A program made the position numbers and the translations under genes. A stretch of 64,000 nucleotides of DNA, from NCBI GenBank assembly GCA_002479075.1, contig DLLG01000017.1, positions 60,198 to 124,197 on the forward strand. Direction: 5' to 3'. The DNA comes from Clostridiales bacterium UBA7568 (GTDB lineage: Bacteria > Bacillota > Clostridia > Oscillospirales > CAG-272). Below the pieces are notes generated by a model that did not search any database, was not told the DNA's origin, and was given only the letters and a program-made list of their open reading frames with translations. The stretch's first letter is position 1; the number at the start of each line of letters is the position of its first letter. This document shows positions 4,176 through 54,442 of this stretch, one piece after another.

Positions 4176-6035
4176 TCATTCCGTCGCAAAGGTCGCCTTC
4201 GGCGATCCGAGATATACAACGAGCGCCGAAAGTCTGCAAGGCATCGTAACAGAAGTTTTGACCTCCCCTCCGACCTTTACGGAAAGCGTCTGTCCTTCGC
4301 TCAGGCTCATAGTTGTCTTTGTGCCGACCGATGCAAAGCCGGAGCAGTTCATCGCTTCGCTGCCCATTCCGTTTGCGGGGCAAAGCGCAAGCACGGTACC
4401 ACCCGAGAAGGTATATCCGTTTTCGGTGTCTATCGAAGAATCGCCGCCCGATGTGCTTACAACGGTTATCTCGCCGCCCGCAAACAGGATTCCCTGATAT
4501 GAAGTGCGGCTGTTGGAATCGATGCCGTCTCCGCCGGCGTAAATATAAACCTTGCCGTCATTGAAGGTTATTCCCGTGCCGGATGTCGTCGTTGCGTTGA
4601 TGCCGTCATCCGAGGAGACGATTGAAATATCGCCGCCGTCAATTCTGACGAACGTACCCTCCAAGCCCTCGTAGCAGCCCGTTATGTCAATTTTACCTCC
4701 TGATACGGTGAGCGTGCCGTCTGCGTGAACGGCATCATCCTTTGAAAAGAGGGTGAGTGTGCCGCCGGAAATCAGGATGTTGCCTGTTGAAGTCTCTCCG
4801 TTTTCAAGCGACGTCCCGCTGTTTGCGTGAATCGAGTCGTCATACGAGGTCAGAGCAAGCGTGCCGCCGGAGATATGAATTTCGTTTCCGGCTTTTATGG
4901 CTTTTGTTGATATCTCGCTCTTATCGCGGTTTCCGTCCGTCATTCCGCCGGGACCGCCACCGAAATCCCCGCCGCCAGGTCTTCCGCCTCCGCCAAAGCC
5001 CCCGAAGCCGCCTTGGTTACCTCCGCCAAAGCCGCCCCGATCGCCGCCAAAGCCCCCGCCCTGACCGCCGAATGAAGCCCCTGCATTGCTTACGCTTGCA
5101 GAGGTGAACTCCGCGCTGCTCTGCTCCGCCGTCTCCTCGGAATAAGGCGAATAGCGTTCCGTAAAGATATTCAGGACAGCCTCGTCGCCGATGTCAACGT
5201 CGTACGCCGCGTCTATTCCGTCACAGGCGGCATAGATATTGACGGTTCCACCCGTTATCGAAACGATACCTCTCTGGTTGCCCTTTGAGGAAACGTCCGT
5301 GTTCTTCGTTTTTATCCCGTCTCCCGATCTTGCAACGAGCGTAATTACTCCGCCGGATATGGTTACGCTGTCGTTGCCCTTGAGCGCATTGTCCTCGCAG
5401 GTTACGGAGAGAGTGAGATTTTTGATTTTGAGATCATCCTTTGTGTGTATACCGTTGTTGTTTGACGAGATGACCGTCAGCTCGCCCTTGCCGCCGATAT
5501 CGAGGTCGCATTTTGCATAAACTGCGGCAGATACCGATGTTTCGTCATCGGAGGCGAGCGCCGCTCTTGTGTCATATATATAATTTTTCGTCTCTTTCTT
5601 TGCGGTCAGAGTCACCTTGTCTCCGGAAAGGATCATAATCGGGTTTTGCTCGCCGCTGAACAGTTTGACGCCGCAAAGCTCAAGTTCGAATTTATAATCG
5701 TCGCCGGCGTCGATTACGATCTGTCCGTCAAATTCGCCGGATACGGCGCAGACGGTATTCTCCGTTATTCCGGAGAAGGTCAGCGTCTTTCCGTCAAAGC
5801 TCCAGCAATTGTCCGTCCCCTCGGAGCAGGTAATTTTCAGGGTGTTTACGTTTTCGTCAAGGTCGTCGGGAACGTCGGTTTTGTCGGGATCGACGGTTTC
5901 CGCAGCGGTTGCGGAGGTTGTCGTCTGAGCCGGATTTTGGCTCTCCGTGTTCTCTGTGCCGCCGCCCGTCGAGCAGGACGCAAGAACGGTCACAAGCAGA
6001 CACGCCAAAAGTAATATTGACAATAGTTTTTTCAT
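4176..6035 (-). CDS. Secreted lipoprotein, Cthe_2159-like carbohydrate-binding beta-helix protein with Gly-rich linker
   Basis: Start at 6035 is preceded by aaaggagg. Lipobox LLVTVLASC. Repeated GG.(I/L)T(I/L)...DD.(I/L)H.(N/D) beta-helix rungs. Run GGQGGGFGGDRGGFGGGNQGGFGGFGGGGRPGGG. Confidence 0.65.
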   Translation of the reverse strand: MKKLLSILLLACLLVTVLASCSTGGGTENTESQNPAQTTTSATAAETVDPDKTDVPDDLDENVNTLKITCSEGTDNCWSFDGKTLTFSGITENTVCAVSGEFDGQIVIDAGDDYKFELELCGVKLFSGEQNPIMILSGDKVTLTAKKETKNYIYDTRAALASDDETSVSAAVYAKCDLDIGGKGELTVISSNNNGIHTKDDLKIKNLTLSVTCEDNALKGNDSVTISGGVITLVARSGDGIKTKNTDVSSKGNQRGIVSITGGTVNIYAACDGIDAAYDVDIGDEAVLNIFTERYSPYSEETAEQSSAEFTSASVSNAGASFGGQGGGFGGDRGGFGGGNQGGFGGFGGGGRPGGGDFGGGPGGMTDGNRDKSEISTKAIKAGNEIHISGGTLALTSYDDSIHANSGTSLENGETSTGNILISGGTLTLFSKDDAVHADGTLTVSGGKIDITGCYEGLEGTFVRIDGGDISIVSSDDGINATTTSGTGITFNDGKVYIYAGGDGIDSNSRTSYQGILFAGGEITVVSTSGGDSSIDTENGYTFSGGTVLALCPANGMGSEAMNCSGFASVGTKTTMSLSEGQTLSVKVGGEVKTSVTMPCRLSALVVYLGSPKATFATE

Positions 6036-42638: not shown

Positions 42639-42687
42639 ACAATAGTGGATGATGACGAAATCATCAAAAGCGAAAGGAGCTGATAAT

Positions 42688-42996
42688 TTGAATACACAAT
42701 ATAAAAAAGGCGTGCTTGAGCTTTGCGTTATGGCTCTGCTGAAAAAGCGGGACTGCTATGGCTACGAAATTTCCGAAACGCTTTCAAAGCAGATAGACAT
42801 AGCGGACGGAACGGTTTACCCGATTCTGAGAAAGCTCAAGTCAGACGGACTTCTGACAACCTATCTTCAGGAGGAGAGCGGAGGACCGCCGAGAAAATAT
42901 TATTCGCTGACAAAACTCGGAAAAGAAACATTTGAAAACGATCTGCGTGATTATCTTCAGTTTGCGCAGGCAATAAAGAATATATTGGAGGACTGA
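42688..42996 (+). CDS. PadR family transcriptional regulator
   Basis: A TTG start at 42688 lies 8 nt after aaaggag (the ORF-track start is 42649). Signature CVMALLKKRDCYGYEI...GTVYPILRKL...RKYYSLT. Confidence 0.85.
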   Translation: MNTQYKKGVLELCVMALLKKRDCYGYEISETLSKQIDIADGTVYPILRKLKSDGLLTTYLQEESGGPPRKYYSLTKLGKETFENDLRDYLQFAQAIKNILED

Positions 42997-42999
42997 AAA

Positions 43000-43713
43000 A
43001 TGAGAAGAAACGAATTCATTGAAACTCTCAAAGAAAATCTCGAAAGAAACGGCGTCCGTGACACGGGCGACATAATCGAAGAATACGAAGAACATTTTAC
43101 ATTCAAGCTTGCGGACGGATATTCGGAGGAGGAGATCGCCGCAAAGCTCGGTAACCCGAAAGCCATAGCCGCGCAGTATGCTCCCTCCCCCGCGGAAAGC
43201 AAAAAGAAAAATAAAGCGCTCGCGACGATCGGCGTCGGCGTTCTGGACTTCTTCTTCGGAATTTTCTGCATCCTGCTCTTTGCCTGGGAAATCATCGTCG
43301 CTGCTTTGACGCTCGCCTTCGGCGCGACTTCCGTATGTATGTTTATGGGCGGCAACATTGCAGGGGTGTCCCTTCCCGAAATGCCATATTATTGCGCCTG
43401 CATTTTCGGCGTAATGTTTATCGCTCTCGCCGTGCTCTCCGCGGTCGGAACGGTGTTTTTCTTCGGATTTATGCGTCAGCTTGTACGTTCATACAGCAGA
43501 TTCGTAAAAAATACACTCGGCAAAACGGCGCTCCCTCCCGTAACGGTTTATCCGCAGTTCTCCGCAAAGGTCAAGCGCACAATGCGCAGCATAGCGCTCA
43601 TCTCCGTAACGGCTTTTGCACTTCTTCTCATAGTCGGCTTTGCGGTTTCTGCGCTCTCCGCAGGATCATTTGAATTCTGGCACGTCTGGGACTGGTTCGA
43701 TTATAACGCATAA
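43000..43713 (+). CDS. DUF1700-like membrane protein (PadR-associated)
   Basis: N-terminal helical domain MRRNEFIETLKENLERNGV...EEIAAKLGNPKAIA followed by 4 TM segments. Confidence 0.7.
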   Translation: MRRNEFIETLKENLERNGVRDTGDIIEEYEEHFTFKLADGYSEEEIAAKLGNPKAIAAQYAPSPAESKKKNKALATIGVGVLDFFFGIFCILLFAWEIIVAALTLAFGATSVCMFMGGNIAGVSLPEMPYYCACIFGVMFIALAVLSAVGTVFFFGFMRQLVRSYSRFVKNTLGKTALPPVTVYPQFSAKVKRTMRSIALISVTAFALLLIVGFAVSALSAGSFEFWHVWDWFDYNA

Positions 43714-44827: not shown

Positions 44828-44904
44828 TTTTATTTTATCATAAACCAAAGCAAAAATCCATATGAACACAAAAAACGAACGGCAAGCCGTTCGTTTTTGA
44901 TTTG
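44828..44904. repeat. Left copy of ~77-bp direct repeat (terminator hairpin + -10 region)
   Basis: A 36-bp core at 44869..44904 (caaaaaacgaacggcaagccgttcgtttttgatttg) and a 15-bp core at 44828..44842 (ttttattttatcata) are identical to 46145..46180 and 46103..46117. The ~26 nt between the cores is diverged. Confidence 0.9.
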
Positions 44905-44966: not shown

Positions 44967-45884
44967 TCAGCTATCCAACTTGTTTCTTATGTCTTTAATC
45001 GTATCTCGGGTTTCCTCCGCAGCCTTGCGACGGCGTTCCGCTTCTTCGATGAGCCTGCGGCTTGTCTCTCGTCGCTCCTCGAGCCGTCTTTCCTCCTCGA
45101 ATCGGCGTATGTTCTCTCTTGAACGTTCTCTGCTCTCAACGACATACAAATTTATCGCTTCTTTTATGCTGTCCGCACGCATATCGCGTATGTATTCCGT
45201 AATTCTGTCAACCGCGTCGAAATATTTGTATTTTTCGGGCAGAATATCATATTCGGCTATAACCAGGTTCACTTCGGCAAGCTCGCGTTCCTGCTTTTCT
45301 ATCACAGGAAGGGCTGCCGCCTGCTTTAGCGACATTTCGTTTGCGTAATTCACCTGTTTTTCGTATTGGTTTTCAAGGTCTTTATTATATTCCCGGAGGC
45401 GTGCCGCCTTATGCTTTTTTAAGTATCGCTTACCTCTGCTTTTGTCTATAGAAGCTGTAATATTATCTAATATAGCACCGATAAGAGAAACCGCAAAAAA
45501 CGAAACAAAGCCTGCAATGACAAACGCAAGAATCAGGTCAATAACAAACATAATGATAAATGCCGTTGATGCCCCCCAATGCATCATCATCAGTACCGTA
45601 GATACAATTGCCGAAACAATCATTAAGACGTAATATAACGCTGAACCCATAAATTTTTTTATATTCTTCGGCTTATGCTTTTCATCATATTTCGCCAGAT
45701 TAGTATCCTTATCCCCTGCTTCCTCCGGCGCAACGTCACATTCTTTTCTTATCGGCTTTTTGCTCCCTTTCCGATATTCCTCTTCCCGCTTTCTCAAATC
45801 GTCAAGCGACGCTTCCAGCTTCCTCTGCCTTGAAAGGCTTTGCCTGAAATTCTGCAATGACGCAACCAAACTTCCTCTGTCCAT
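44967..45884 (-). CDS. Hypothetical coiled-coil / 2-3 TM / coiled-coil membrane protein
   Basis: The ATG at 45884 follows ggaggg. Charged heptad-like N- and C-terminal regions flank a hydrophobic core (ALYYVLMIVSAIVSTVLMMM...FVIAGFVSFFAVSLIGAIL). No family recognised. Confidence 0.6.
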   Translation of the reverse strand: MDRGSLVASLQNFRQSLSRQRKLEASLDDLRKREEEYRKGSKKPIRKECDVAPEEAGDKDTNLAKYDEKHKPKNIKKFMGSALYYVLMIVSAIVSTVLMMMHWGASTAFIIMFVIDLILAFVIAGFVSFFAVSLIGAILDNITASIDKSRGKRYLKKHKAARLREYNKDLENQYEKQVNYANEMSLKQAAALPVIEKQERELAEVNLVIAEYDILPEKYKYFDAVDRITEYIRDMRADSIKEAINLYVVESRERSRENIRRFEEERRLEERRETSRRLIEEAERRRKAAEETRDTIKDIRNKLDS

Positions 45885-45918
45885 ATCTTTCCCTCCGCTT
45901 GATAAAATTTTGATAAAA

Positions 45919-45948
45919 TAAAAAAGTGCGTGACTTGAAGCCACGCAC
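45919..45948 (-). terminator. Intrinsic terminator inside the 5' leader of the 44967..45884 gene
   Basis: On the minus strand: gtgcgtg-gcttcaagt-cacgcac followed by tttttt. It sits 35 nt upstream of the RBS. Confidence 0.65.
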
Positions 45949-46102
45949 AAAAAACGCACGCTCCAAGTTACCACACAACATTTTATAGCCGGTTGCCGAG
46001 CAAAAAGCATACAAAAAGGGAGCATACATTTTTATCAAATTAAAAATGTATACTTTTCGCACTGTCATATCGGCATAAAAACGCTATTCTGTTGTGTGGT
46101 AA
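45949..46102 (-). promoter_or_regulatory. Structured 5' leader (candidate riboswitch or attenuator aptamer domain)
   Basis: A 13-nt closing helix pairs ttaccacacaaca (46090..46102) with tgttgtgtggtaa (45968..45980). It encloses the nested helices atagc/gctat and tgccga/tcggca, and a 10-bp hairpin atacattttt/aaaaatgtat. Confidence 0.5.
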
Positions 46103-46180
46103 TTTTATTTTATCATACGCCGGAAAGGTTGTCAATCCCGAACGCAAAAAACGAACGGCAAGCCGTTCGTTTTTGATTTG
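46103..46180. repeat. Right copy of ~78-bp direct repeat (terminator of the ABC importer operon + -10 region)
   Basis: See the left copy at 44828..44904. The hairpin acgaacgg-caag-ccgttcgt has T-runs on both strands. Confidence 0.9.
46107..46135 (-). promoter_or_regulatory. Sigma-A-type promoter of the inserted cassette
   Basis: On the minus strand: TTGACA, 17-nt spacer, TAAAAT, with an upstream TG. Confidence 0.6.
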
Positions 46181-46181
46181 C

Positions 46182-46916
46182 TTATTTTTCAAAATATCTT
46201 GAAAGGAATTCCTTCGTGCGTTCCTTTTTCGGATTGCCGAAAATCTCTGCGGGAGTACCCTCCTCCTCGATATACCCGCCGTCCATAAAAATAACGCGGC
46301 TTGAAACATCGCGGGCAAACGCCATTTCGTGTGTCACGACTATCATCGTAAGTCCGTCGGCGGCAAGCGACTTCATAACCGAAAGCACCTCTCCGACCAT
46401 CTCCGGATCAAGAGCGGACGTCGGTTCGTCAAAGAGAATGACCTCCGGCTCCATACAGAGCGCGCGAGCTATTGCGACCCGCTGCTTCTGTCCGCCGGAA
46501 AGCTGGCGGGGCTTCGCATTCTTATACGCCGCCATACCGACCTTAGAAAGATACTCCTCCGCTCTCTTCTCAGCCTCTGCTTTTGAAAGCCCGAGCACCT
46601 TCTCGGCACCGATTGTACAGTTGCGGAAAGCCGTCATATTATTGAAAAGATTAAAGCTCTGGAAAACCATCGTTACCTTCGAGCGATAGTCCGTAAGGGA
46701 GACATCCTTGCCGCGGACATCCTTGCCGTGAAAAAGAATTTCGCCGCCCGTCGGCGTTTCGAGCAGATTTATGCAACGGAGCATCGTGCTCTTTCCCGAG
46801 CCGGAAGGGCCGATAACGCTTATAACGTCGCCCTGACCGACAGAAAACGAAATGTCGTGCAGAACGTCGTTTGCTCCGAAGGACTTTTTCAGATGAGAAA
46901 CTTCAATCAAAGACAT
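46182..46916 (-). CDS. Amino-acid ABC transporter ATP-binding protein (GlnQ-type)
   Basis: Walker [10 protein letters not shown], signature [15 protein letters not shown], Walker [12 protein letters not shown]. Confidence 0.93.
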
Positions 46917-48594: not shown

Positions 48595-48806
48595 CGAAAA
48601 AATCGCGGTGACAACCATCACTGCGACAAATAATAAAATCAAGTCCCGCGATAGCTCTCCACCTAAGTGACAGTACGGCAGATATTATCTGCAATACCGG
48701 TTTACACGGCAAAATCCGTACCGTATACCCTCGGCAGTGTTCCCTTTCGCACGGAAGCGGATACTTCTCGTTCGTGTTAATCATAAACACCGCGCCTCTA
48801 CCTAAA
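48595..48806 (-). promoter_or_regulatory. Lysine riboswitch (L-box) with terminator expression platform
   Basis: The minus strand reads GUAGAGGCGC...GAGAAGUA...GAAAGGGAA...GCCGAGGG...ACUGUCAC...GGUGGAGAGCU. This matches the conserved L-box blocks seen in B. subtilis lysC and T. maritima. A terminator follows: tcgcagtga-tggttg-tcaccgcga plus T6 (48595..48627). Confidence 0.85.
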
Positions 48807-48837
48807 AAACGATATTCTGTTTTGAAATCATACGGGA

Positions 48838-53755: not shown

Positions 53756-54442
53756 TTACATCCGCTTTACCGAGGCAAGCAGTCCGCCGAACATCCAGAG
53801 ATTTCCGAAAGCGATCCAAGCGCAGGCAAGCGCATTTGCAAGCGGGAAATTACCGAAAATACTCGGCAAAACGGCAATCGCCATACCGATCGGAAGGGAG
53901 AACACCCAGCATCCTTTCGGACACGGCGTCTGCCCTTTTGCAAAGGCTTTTATCTGCATAACCTGCAAAACGGCAAAGAATATCCAGAACAACACAAATG
54001 CGGGCAGAACGAAATACATTGCGTATTTCGTCAAAAGCTCGTTTGCAAAGCCGTGCTTTGTCAGATACACGAGGGCGCAGGTCGGAACGTGAAAACCGCA
54101 CGCTCCAAACATCAGATACCCGAATATACCCGCGCGGTAGCTATGGGCATACTTCGGCGAATACGGCGCAATCATTCTGTAAATACCGAAATATGAAAGC
54201 CCCTCAAGGAGCATACCGAAAAGTCCGAGCAGGGCTGCGGCGAAAATACCGCCGTCCGACGTTTTCTCATATGCGGAGAGCATCCGGAAGATCCCATTAA
54301 GGCTCTCGTCCTCTGTCCCCCAACCGAGAATCATATCGCCGACGAAATGAAGCACTGAAGCAAACAGCCCGATCGCAAGCAGCTTTTTTATGCGCGGCAT
54401 ATCGAGCTTTCCCGAAATTCCGATGTCATTAAATTCGGTCAT
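53756..54442 (-). CDS. Polytopic membrane protein, DUF6796-like (copy 1)
   Basis: The ATG at 54442 follows aggagg and forms an ATGA overlap with the upstream gene. About 7 TM segments. The N-terminal LLAIGLFASVLHFVGDMILGW parallels LLGALGAFLMLVGDLCLSV of the 60623..61345 gene. Confidence 0.5.
   Translation of the reverse strand: MTEFNDIGISGKLDMPRIKKLLAIGLFASVLHFVGDMILGWGTEDESLNGIFRMLSAYEKTSDGGIFAAALLGLFGMLLEGLSYFGIYRMIAPYSPKYAHSYRAGIFGYLMFGACGFHVPTCALVYLTKHGFANELLTKYAMYFVLPAFVLFWIFFAVLQVMQIKAFAKGQTPCPKGCWVFSLPIGMAIAVLPSIFGNFPLANALACAWIAFGNLWMFGGLLASVKRM

Follow-up and report, generated by a model that had tools for sequence, protein, structure and literature searches.

A structured leader upstream of a Clostridiales orphan gene belongs to a probable attenuator RNA family absent from Rfam and carries a segment complementary to both a rod bulge and the terminator top

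The stretch analyzed here, referred to as the window, is a 64,000-nucleotide (64-kb) segment of Clostridiales bacterium UBA7568 (GenBank assembly GCA_002479075.1, contig DLLG01000017.1, positions 60,198 to 124,197). Our subject is a 5′ leader on its minus strand (46102..45885), which precedes a gene of 305 codons (44967..45884, ATG at 45884) for an orphan membrane protein; the features named below lie on the same strand unless marked otherwise. The immediate upstream neighbor of the leader unit is an ABC-transporter ATPase gene that ends at 46182. It is followed by the first copy of a 41-nt repeat (46140..46180), which is the terminator hairpin of the upstream ABC operon (stem 46174..46147), and by a near-consensus sigma-70-type promoter at 46135..46107 (TTGACA-17-TAAAAT plus a TG extension; 11 of 12 matches). 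The ribosome-binding site of the gene, GGAGGG, is located at 45896..45891, and a second copy of the 41-nt repeat (44864..44904), 98% identical to the first, closes the unit of promoter, leader and gene. An original prediction, made from the sequence alone, had described a promoter, a set of helices, an intrinsic terminator and a ribosome-binding site at this locus, and reading the sequence located every one of them at the positions it had given.

The leader folds into a long hairpin. Its base, P1, is the perfect 13-bp closing helix of the original prediction, formed by ttaccacacaaca (46102..46090) and tgttgtgtggtaa (45980..45968). These two 13-mers are the only copies within the 64 kb, even with two mismatches allowed, and a repeat search extended the inverted repeat to 16 nt at 94%. 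Above P1 lies a variable middle, with atagc and tgccga on the 5′ side (46061..46089) and tcggca and gctat on the 3′ side (45981..45999). It is followed by a lower helix, in which GCGAAAAGUAUA (46060..46049) pairs with UAUGCUUUUUGC (46000..46011) in a register common to all lineages described below, and by an apical hairpin, CAUUUUUA-AUUUGA-UAAAAAUG (46048..46027). A pyrimidine-rich bulge, UAUGCUCCCUUUUUG (46026..46012), interrupts the 3′ side between the apical hairpin and the lower helix. The nested helices that had been proposed (atagc/gctat, tgccga/tcggca and atacattttt/aaaaatgtat) were all present in the minimum-free-energy fold of the leader, which reached -70.4 kcal/mol (z = -4.9), and none of 200 dinucleotide shuffles folded as well. 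The helices thus stand, whereas the multi-stem, aptamer-like domain they were thought to build does not: since all helices are coaxially nested, the predicted domain is one rod-like hairpin of about 131 nt with a single conserved asymmetric bulge and no multi-way junction. Judged from the promoter, transcription probably starts near A46100, about 7 nt past the -10 and at the base of the rod. The start would therefore fall inside the closing segment, as had been supposed, and 11 of the 13 closing pairs would be contained in the RNA.

Directly 3′ of the rod lies a purine-rich segment, CUUGGAGCGUGCG (45955..45967), which we refer to as the switch segment h. It is followed by a run of six U (45949..45954) and by the terminator hairpin GTGCGTGGCTTCAAGTCACGCAC (45948..45926), composed of the 5′ arm GUGCGUGGC, the loop UUCAA and the 3′ arm GUCACGCAC. 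With a stem of 9–10 bp that includes six G-C pairs, a T6 tract (45925..45920) and a predicted energy of -15.8 kcal/mol, this hairpin has the properties of an intrinsic terminator, and a premature 3′ end is expected at the U-tract. The strand-specific terminator that had been predicted ahead of the gene was therefore found. The 3′ strand of P1 is additionally complementary to the 3′ arm of the terminator.

The leader did not match any known RNA class. None of the 4227 covariance models of Rfam 15 matched it at the gathering threshold, in line with the original prediction, which could assign no class. A permissive scan of 45700-46300 returned terminator-like or chance matches only, far under gathering scores, and nothing relevant was found in three distant leaders (L028-L030, introduced below). 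A T-box leader was considered owing to some GUGGU resemblance and was rejected, as RF00230 gave no match even at E <= 10 and the downstream genes are unrelated to aminoacylation. The only gathering-level Rfam match in the window was a lysine riboswitch (RF00168, 86.5 bits, 48644-48808 on the minus strand); it heads the three-gene amino-acid ABC operon (SBP_bac_3, permease and ATPase) that ends just before the leader promoter.

Homologous leaders were collected from the contigs of proteins related to the downstream protein and by BLASTN, pattern and nhmmer searches (BLASTN and nhmmer had been named as a check in the original prediction), and they fall into nine sequence lineages. The contigs of 14 members of the downstream protein family provided 13 distinct full-length leaders of three types. 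Type A leaders are window-like and share the same ABC-operon context, and types B and C occur in another context, between TspO on the upstream side and KsgA on the downstream side; one type C leader (L001) stems from an Acutalibacteraceae genome, which is the closest relative that has a name. The window shares 97-98% identity with type A leaders; for these genomes, identity is 83-95% in the ATPase gene located 200 nt upstream and 79-96% over the initial 150 nt of the gene that follows the leader. When types B and C are compared with the window, identity at third codon positions is just 48-66%, yet no change is seen in the apical module or anywhere in the terminator region. The leader is thus under stronger constraint than its flanking genes. 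In one group of the protein family (P0033), the leader and the first ~70 codons were replaced together, directly after the -35, and in type C both rod arms were replaced together.

Beyond these types, the extension of the family drew on viral and phage collections. Low-stringency BLASTN of the leader against GenBank phage records gave a distant homologue, and an iterated search from it, together with IMG/VR pattern scans and nhmmer, gave six further lineages. L028 precedes a lipoprotein gene in a chromosomal-looking setting (YicC and Met gamma-lyase). L029 lies downstream of an integrase and an Xre-like gene and precedes a gene for a small membrane protein, and L030 follows an integrase and a Rep-like gene and precedes genes for a zinc-ribbon membrane protein and then a lipoprotein. 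Type F comprises ~27 phage contigs with TerL, primase, HNH and MazG-like genes, in which the leader precedes the gene for a 173-aa helical protein with a C-terminal membrane anchor. The last two, L246 and L053, are from IMG/VR contigs and precede genes for a 65-aa and a 113-aa protein, respectively. The settings therefore span chromosomes, integrase-bearing elements and phage genomes. The nine lineages are represented by 46100..45920 in the window, L001, L005, L028:2073-2240, L029:2500-2320, L030:2440-2615, L174:3935-4106, L246:2736-2564 and L053:526-372. The lineages share one layout: promoter, rod, short linker, purine-rich segment, U4-6 run, terminator, U-tract and gene. In all of them the promoter -10, read from the sequence, sits 4-7 nt ahead of P1, an intrinsic terminator is present, and the terminator 5′ arm, (G)GUGCGU.., is near-invariant; a U5-6 run is kept in the A/B/C and L028-L030 leaders. 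The apical hairpin is also nearly invariant (alignment consensus C[A/G]UUUUU..AAAAA[U/C]G), with an A-U to G-C change in L030. Exact-motif scans of viral contigs and of plasmids found no copies. In our reading, the leader is a member of a conserved attenuator RNA family absent from Rfam.

The rod is supported by covariation, another check that had been proposed. We counted changes over hand-specified P1, lower-helix, apical-hairpin and terminator pairs in 14 distinct leaders from six lineages, in which standard pairs occupied 98.4% of alignment cells. Both sides had changed in 11 of the 38 pairs, a number reached by none of 500 shuffles, and controls in which the partners were slid by 1-3 columns gave 0-2 such pairs. 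The changes fell in P1 (5 of 13 pairs), the lower helix (5 of 9) and the apical hairpin (1 of 8); the terminator showed none in 8 pairs, with wobble changes only. Type F, read in by eye, adds terminator flips of G-C to C-G and of G-U to U-G. The arms of the variable middle also pair best within their own lineage (-21.7, -14.6 and -17.3 kcal/mol, versus -8 to -15 kcal/mol for mixed arms). Folds of other lineages gave z-scores of -4.3, -5.9, -6.8, -8.85, -8.7 and -8.8; across seven lineages the range was -4.3 to -8.9, obtained partly with built-in shuffles and partly with a separate dinucleotide shuffle. Consistent among the lineages is a shared register that comprises, from the base upward, the lower helix, a 13-16-nt pyrimidine-rich bulge on the 3′ side and the apical hairpin. 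A two-register bistability of the apical module, in which the 5′ strand AAAAGUAUACA pairs with either of two copies of UGUAUGCU, is isoenergetic in types A/B/C and was rejected as a family feature, as it is not conserved in L029. A kissing interaction between the apical loop and the terminator loop (AUUUGA/UCAAGU) is possible in the window and was dropped because it is not possible in L028-L030.

Folding the transcript only up to the emergence of the terminator 3′ arm revealed an alternative hairpin. In this predicted antiterminator, CUUGGAGC (45967..45960), within h, pairs with GCUUCAAG (45941..45934), which comprises the top of the terminator 5′ arm and the loop; the inner pairs are G-U-rich and the U-run forms the loop. 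The hairpin was seen in every lineage and is mutually exclusive with the terminator in the predicted folds. The original prediction had also anticipated a competing strand, and in this it was right; the gtgcg/cgcac pairing it proposed is, however, not the main competitor. For the hairpins alone (types A/B/C and L028-L030), the antiterminator reached -12 to -15 kcal/mol, compared with -14 to -16 kcal/mol for the terminator. Over the whole window leader in one rod register the two states are isoenergetic, at -60.2 kcal/mol with the antiterminator and -60.6 kcal/mol with the terminator, and in types B, C and F the full-length minimum-energy fold is the one with the antiterminator. The loop of the terminator is conserved across the leaders, as would be unusual for a loop that has no pairing partner. 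With P1 held open, the antiterminator grows in all lineages through pairing of the P1 3′ strand with the 3′ arm of the terminator, reaching -21 to -33 kcal/mol. The strands of this extended form covary in part, with the window type as the weakest case, and we regard it as a secondary possibility.

The switch segment has a second potential partner, the bulge of the rod. In the window, GUAUGCUCC is complementary to GGAGCGUGC. The predicted bulge:h energies were -11.7 kcal/mol in types A/B/C, -12.2 in L029, -11.2 in L030, -11.1 in type F, -8.2 in L246, -7.0 in L053 and -5.3 in L028. In every lineage tested, the natural bulge outperformed shuffled bulges (p = 0.000, 0.042, 0.007 and 0.024, and 0.0035 for type F). 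Moreover, bulge, h and terminator top change in step between lineages. The window has GCUCC in the bulge, GGAGC in h and GCUUC at the terminator top; the corresponding motifs are GGCUCU, GGAGCC and GGCUUC in L030, CCCUU, AAGGG and GCCUU in L246, UCUCUC, GAGAGA and UCUCUU in type F, and UCUCUC, GGGGGA and UCUCUC in L053. This three-way covariation was evaluated with seven motif sets by comparing the summed same-lineage energy with all 5040 permutations. The sum was -66.7 for bulge and h, compared with a permuted mean of -52.8 (sd 5.8; p = 0.012), and -100.1 for h and terminator top, compared with -74.5 (sd 9.1; p = 0.0016).

With high confidence, we regard the leader as a functional structured attenuator. 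The reading that we consider probable, somewhat better than an even chance, is that it acts in cis on transcription and that h toggles between the rod bulge and the terminator; our confidence in the toggle as such is moderate. Transcription would start at the base of the rod and produce P1, the variable middle, the lower helix, the bulge and the apical hairpin, with h emerging just 3′ of the rod. If h then pairs with the upper part of the terminator 5′ arm and the adjoining loop, the antiterminator would form and RNA polymerase would read into the gene. If, instead, the bulge captures h as an anti-antiterminator, the terminator GUGCGUGGC/GUCACGCAC-U6 would be freed and the RNA would end near 45920, giving a product of about 180 nt with a blunt 5′ helix and a 3′ hairpin, features by which the terminated leader should be stable. 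The capture may occur in cis, within one molecule, or in trans, by a terminated leader RNA acting on a nascent transcript. The outcome would depend on how accessible the bulge or how stable the rod is, and candidate controls are the concentration of the leader RNA itself, a protein with affinity for the CU-rich bulge, or a ligand. The toggle would explain the resemblance between bulge and terminator top and the conservation of the terminator loop. The apical and terminator modules would be frozen at nearly every nucleotide because each has more than one partner.

Several points weigh against the toggle. The cis bulge:h helix looks sterically difficult, as the bulge lies about 30 bp up the rod and h only 3-5 nt from its base, so the rod would have to be sharply folded or P1 opened; pairing in trans avoids this geometric difficulty and would match the occurrence in phages and cassettes. 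In L028 the bulge:h pairing is weak (-5.3 kcal/mol). The lineages are few and related, and the permutation signal comes largely from two motif classes (GGAG-like and GAGA-like), so that independent events are few. The aligned terminator pairs vary by wobble alone, and their G-C/C-G flips depend on the type F leaders read by eye. In the window's own minimum-energy register, in which the 10-bp apical hairpin grows to 13-14 bp and gains about 5 kcal/mol, the GCUCC motif of the bulge is partly paired (with 46052..46042); this alternative is missing in L029, and the register is therefore regarded as a local extra. All energies are nearest-neighbor predictions, and both the start site and the termination event are deduced from sequence. 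Finally, no effector was found, nor was a second target site in the 64-kb window. A 13-mer one mismatch from the switch segment (TTTGGAGCGTGCG) occurs at 54109..54097 (minus strand) inside a membrane-protein coding region and was judged a chance match.

A further-reaching proposal, tentative and on balance doubtful, is that the family serves clostridial phages and gene cassettes as a control or immunity device that consists of RNA only and targets itself, with leaders that terminate nascent transcripts in trans. By default, a nascent leader would form the antiterminator and allow read-through. Terminated leaders would pile up as stable ~180-nt rods displaying a CU-rich decoy bulge, and these rods would force termination by pairing with h of new transcripts, whether made by the element itself or by an incoming relative that belongs to its specificity class. 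These classes would correspond to the h motifs GGAGC, AAGGG, GAGAGA and GGGGGA. Such a device would resemble the P4 CI RNA discussed below in its logic, but would work through an intrinsic terminator/antiterminator switch. If true, it would imply dosage-sensing autoregulation or superinfection cross-talk with programmable specificity.

Among published concepts, the closest to the h-toggle attenuator is the zipper-type attenuator cATT of pLS20, which is found on related conjugative plasmids and for which an RNA-binding protein or an antisense RNA has been proposed as trigger (Gonzalez-Alvarez et al., NAR 2026, PMC13401043). Both comprise a long imperfect stem-loop in the 5′ leader that adjoins an intrinsic terminator, both have two conformers of similar free energy, in both the antiterminator uses the terminator's 5′ stem and its loop, and both occur on mobile elements of Firmicutes (PMC13401043). 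In cATT, however, the antiterminator extends the long stem, and the 3′ strand of a weak upstream stem-loop pairs with the terminator (PMC13401043). The present leader starts at the base of the rod and lacks an upstream stem-loop; none can be transcribed, because the -10 lies only 4-7 nt before P1. Here, the partner h lies 3′ of the rod, and a bulge internal to the rod mimics the terminator top. The downstream genes differ as well, since they encode membrane proteins, lipoproteins or small proteins, with no conAn1/conAn2 and no conjugation operon.

The CI RNA of satellite phage P4 (Rfam C4 antisense RNA family; Ghisotti 1992, Sabbattini 1995, Briani 2000) offers a parallel in immunity. According to the summary in PMC4825925, a stable structured RNA is derived by processing from the leader of the same transcript, and its exposed sequence pairs with a site further along the leader, acting in trans on seqA and seqC and causing premature termination. 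Compared with that account, the present leader likewise exposes a bulge complementary to a downstream segment, h (-5 to -12 kcal/mol, better than shuffles and covarying), and is likewise found in a phage or mobile-element setting. It has no sequence match to the P4 RNA and no Rfam C4 match. Relative to the mechanism given there, termination here would be intrinsic, with the terminator released from an antiterminator, and action in trans would be hypothetical.

The P4 CI, pT181/pIP501 and PyrR systems share part of the logic with this leader, but not its architecture or sequence. In countertranscript attenuation (pT181 RNAI/II, pIP501 RNAIII and pAMbeta1), an RNA-RNA contact chooses between a pre-emptor fold and an intrinsic terminator, complementary loops set the specificity, and the regulators are antisense transcripts from the opposite strand. 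In the present family, by contrast, it is the sense leader that encodes the sequence complementary to h. An antisense -10-like sequence, TGATAAAAT, at 45911..45923 (plus strand) is kept in types A/B/C, and none was seen on reading L028-L030. In the pyr operon of Bacillus, the anti-antiterminator is a local hairpin stabilized by PyrR and UMP. The three-layer logic is the same: an anti-antiterminator sequesters the 5′ strand of an antiterminator that overlaps the 5′ arm of the terminator. Here, however, the sequestering pairing would be a long-range or intermolecular one with a bulge on a 131-nt rod.

We weighed five other explanations against the h-toggle attenuator. In the first, which we consider unlikely, the leader is a small-molecule or ion riboswitch, in which the rod is the aptamer and a ligand fixes the rod or a bulge:h pseudoknot and so chooses between terminator and antiterminator. 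The leader has the features of such a class in its conserved, covarying structured domain and in the mutually exclusive terminator and antiterminator that follow as a classical platform (according to predicted energies). Its invariant unpaired nucleotides cluster in one bulge and one loop, and its two isoenergetic states are those of a poised switch. ZTP and preQ1-II OFF-riboswitches form a pseudoknot between an aptamer loop and a 3′ tail that otherwise belongs to the expression platform, and in this leader too a loop of the structured 5′ domain would pair with a 3′ segment of the platform. Unlike those riboswitches, it has no junction-based pocket, its pairing motifs change class, and the regulated genes share no function. 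The architecture, a long rod with perfect helices of 11-17 bp and no junction, counts against this explanation. The putative binding motif is not invariant but switches class along with its pairing partners, as base pairing, and not a ligand pocket, would predict. Rfam gave no riboswitch match. The nine lineages precede seven downstream proteins without mutual BLASTP similarity, and a Pfam scan of five of them (all except those of L246 and L053) found a zinc ribbon in one as the sole domain. No functionally coherent gene set emerged among the seven, whose functions are unassigned, and several of the genes reside on phages or integrative elements, which argues against a gene-specific metabolite riboswitch. 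Of the original riboswitch-or-attenuator reading, then, the structured 5′ leader with its terminator holds, and a gene-specific metabolite riboswitch is disfavored.

In the second explanation, the unit of promoter, rod and terminator is the gene of a stand-alone stable small RNA (sRNA) with other targets, and the downstream gene is expressed by incidental read-through. The strong promoter, the helix at the 5′ end, the strong terminator 35-85 nt before the next start codon and the occurrence in phages and mobile elements would suit an sRNA, and the CU-rich bulge would display a seed-like region. However, the conserved antiterminator that covaries with h disables the terminator, which would be pointless for a plain sRNA terminator. 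In addition, the unit always stands directly upstream of a co-oriented gene with no promoter-like site between, and leader and N-terminal coding region were swapped together in the P0033 group. We therefore rate an independent sRNA gene as quite improbable.

About equally improbable is the third, a passive 5′ stabilizer or processing hairpin, protecting against 5′-end-dependent decay or serving as an RNase III site, combined with a constitutively leaky terminator. Two features fit it, namely that the helix begins at the predicted +1 in every lineage and that long near-perfect duplexes are typical of RNase III substrates. Left unexplained by it are the invariant bulge and switch segment, the conserved terminator loop, and the co-variation of bulge, h and terminator top.

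Fourth, the inverted repeat might act at the level of DNA, as a cruciform, a recombination site or a miniature inverted-repeat mobile element, with its arms matched by template switching. It is indeed long and imperfect, 41-nt direct repeats bracket the unit in the window as a repeated hairpin does in L030, and in type C both arms were exchanged together. Nevertheless, the sense strand folded 5-14 kcal/mol better than the antisense strand in 13 of 13 aligned leaders because of the 3-6 G-U pairs in each rod, and this advantage points to RNA rather than DNA structure. Each locus has a single copy, with no further copy in the window or in the other loci scanned by nhmmer; its placement with respect to promoter, terminator and gene start does not vary; and two of the pairing elements, h and the terminator top, are not part of the inverted repeat. 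A DNA element is thus very unlikely. Fifth, chance AT-rich palindromes, the caveat of the original prediction, are encouraged by a region of 38-39% GC with many alternative short pairings, but are contradicted by z-scores of -4.3 to -8.9 and by a structure kept with compensatory changes across nine lineages, and we give them practically no weight.

Some narrower candidates were also examined and set aside. Leader-peptide attenuation was rejected because the in-frame AUGs at 46025 and 46068 lack a Shine-Dalgarno sequence and the frame is open in type A only, with early stops in types B and C. The R′′/R′ consensus of an integron attC or hairpin recombination site was not matched on reading the sequence. 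A dispersed repeat or miniature mobile element was dropped, as no second copy was found in the window, the other loci scanned, viral contigs or plasmids. The CUCCC bulge as an anti-Shine-Dalgarno against the ribosome-binding site of the gene could form at most 4 bp.

The protein downstream of the leader in the window (305 aa) is a membrane protein with coiled-coil ends and a hypervariable transmembrane middle. Scans of Pfam, NCBIfam, PHROGs and PADLOC gave nothing significant, and PDB profile and exhaustive profile searches gave no annotated relative, which agrees with its original description as a protein without assignable function. A search of 5.8 billion proteins defined a family of 36 members, to which a profile search added 429 more distant proteins; ten of these were scanned and had no significant Pfam domain. 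The 36 members (P0001-P0036) form a mosaic in which the N-terminal ~70 aa and the C-terminal ~150 aa are conserved and the middle is hypervariable, even where the leaders are 98% identical. Two of them (P0006 and P0019, from L004 and relatives) carry a 47-aa N-terminal extension that is translated leader, a gene-calling artefact that arises because type A leaders have no in-frame stop.

Several observations concern the neighborhood. The L030 cassette, a leader with two genes, is likewise bracketed by a repeated hairpin (L030:2294-2335 and 4457-4498), and the bracketing repeats suggest cassette-like gain and loss by recombination. In the window, the extended -10 string TATGATAAAATAAAA is common to the leader promoter (46103-46117, minus strand) and to the promoter of the next gene (44828-44842, minus strand), which encodes a DNA-binding domain of the 6-O-methylguanine methyltransferase type. 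TGATAAAATAAAA, an inverted copy of the last 13 bases of TATGATAAAATAAAA, lies just past the leader terminator (45911-45923, plus strand). There are three copies in all, a number reached in none of 100 shuffles; the inverted copy could serve as an antisense -10, and its conservation is limited to types A/B/C. The opposite strand carries, two genes downstream, a PadR-family regulator followed by a HAAS-domain membrane protein (42649-43713, plus strand), and this pair is kept beside the cassette in those type A and P0033-group contexts that are long enough (L010, L011 and L014). In the L029 locus, a neighbor of the leader cassette (L029:896-1651, plus strand) matched the PADLOC candidate defence family PDC-M24B (E = 5e-16) and Pfam DUF1828. 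L028 is GenBank record MT835845, labelled 'UNVERIFIED: Bacteriophage sp.'; its leader region encodes YicC-like endoribonuclease, Met gamma-lyase-family and metallo-beta-lactamase-fold proteins and looks more like a bacterial chromosome than a phage.

Taken as a cis-acting attenuator with a switch segment, this leader would extend the short list of terminator/antiterminator leaders by a cis-regulatory RNA family not described before. Its design is unusual: the long scaffold hairpin harbors a bulge that imitates the terminator top and vies with it for one switch segment. The motif classes of the lineages suggest that the RNA-RNA specificity is programmable, and it could find further use in a synthetic attenuator. 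The leader family also provides a handle on several orphan envelope proteins, and its placement before unrelated accessory genes in gut Clostridia, phages and integrase-bearing elements may report a general signal for mobile genes.

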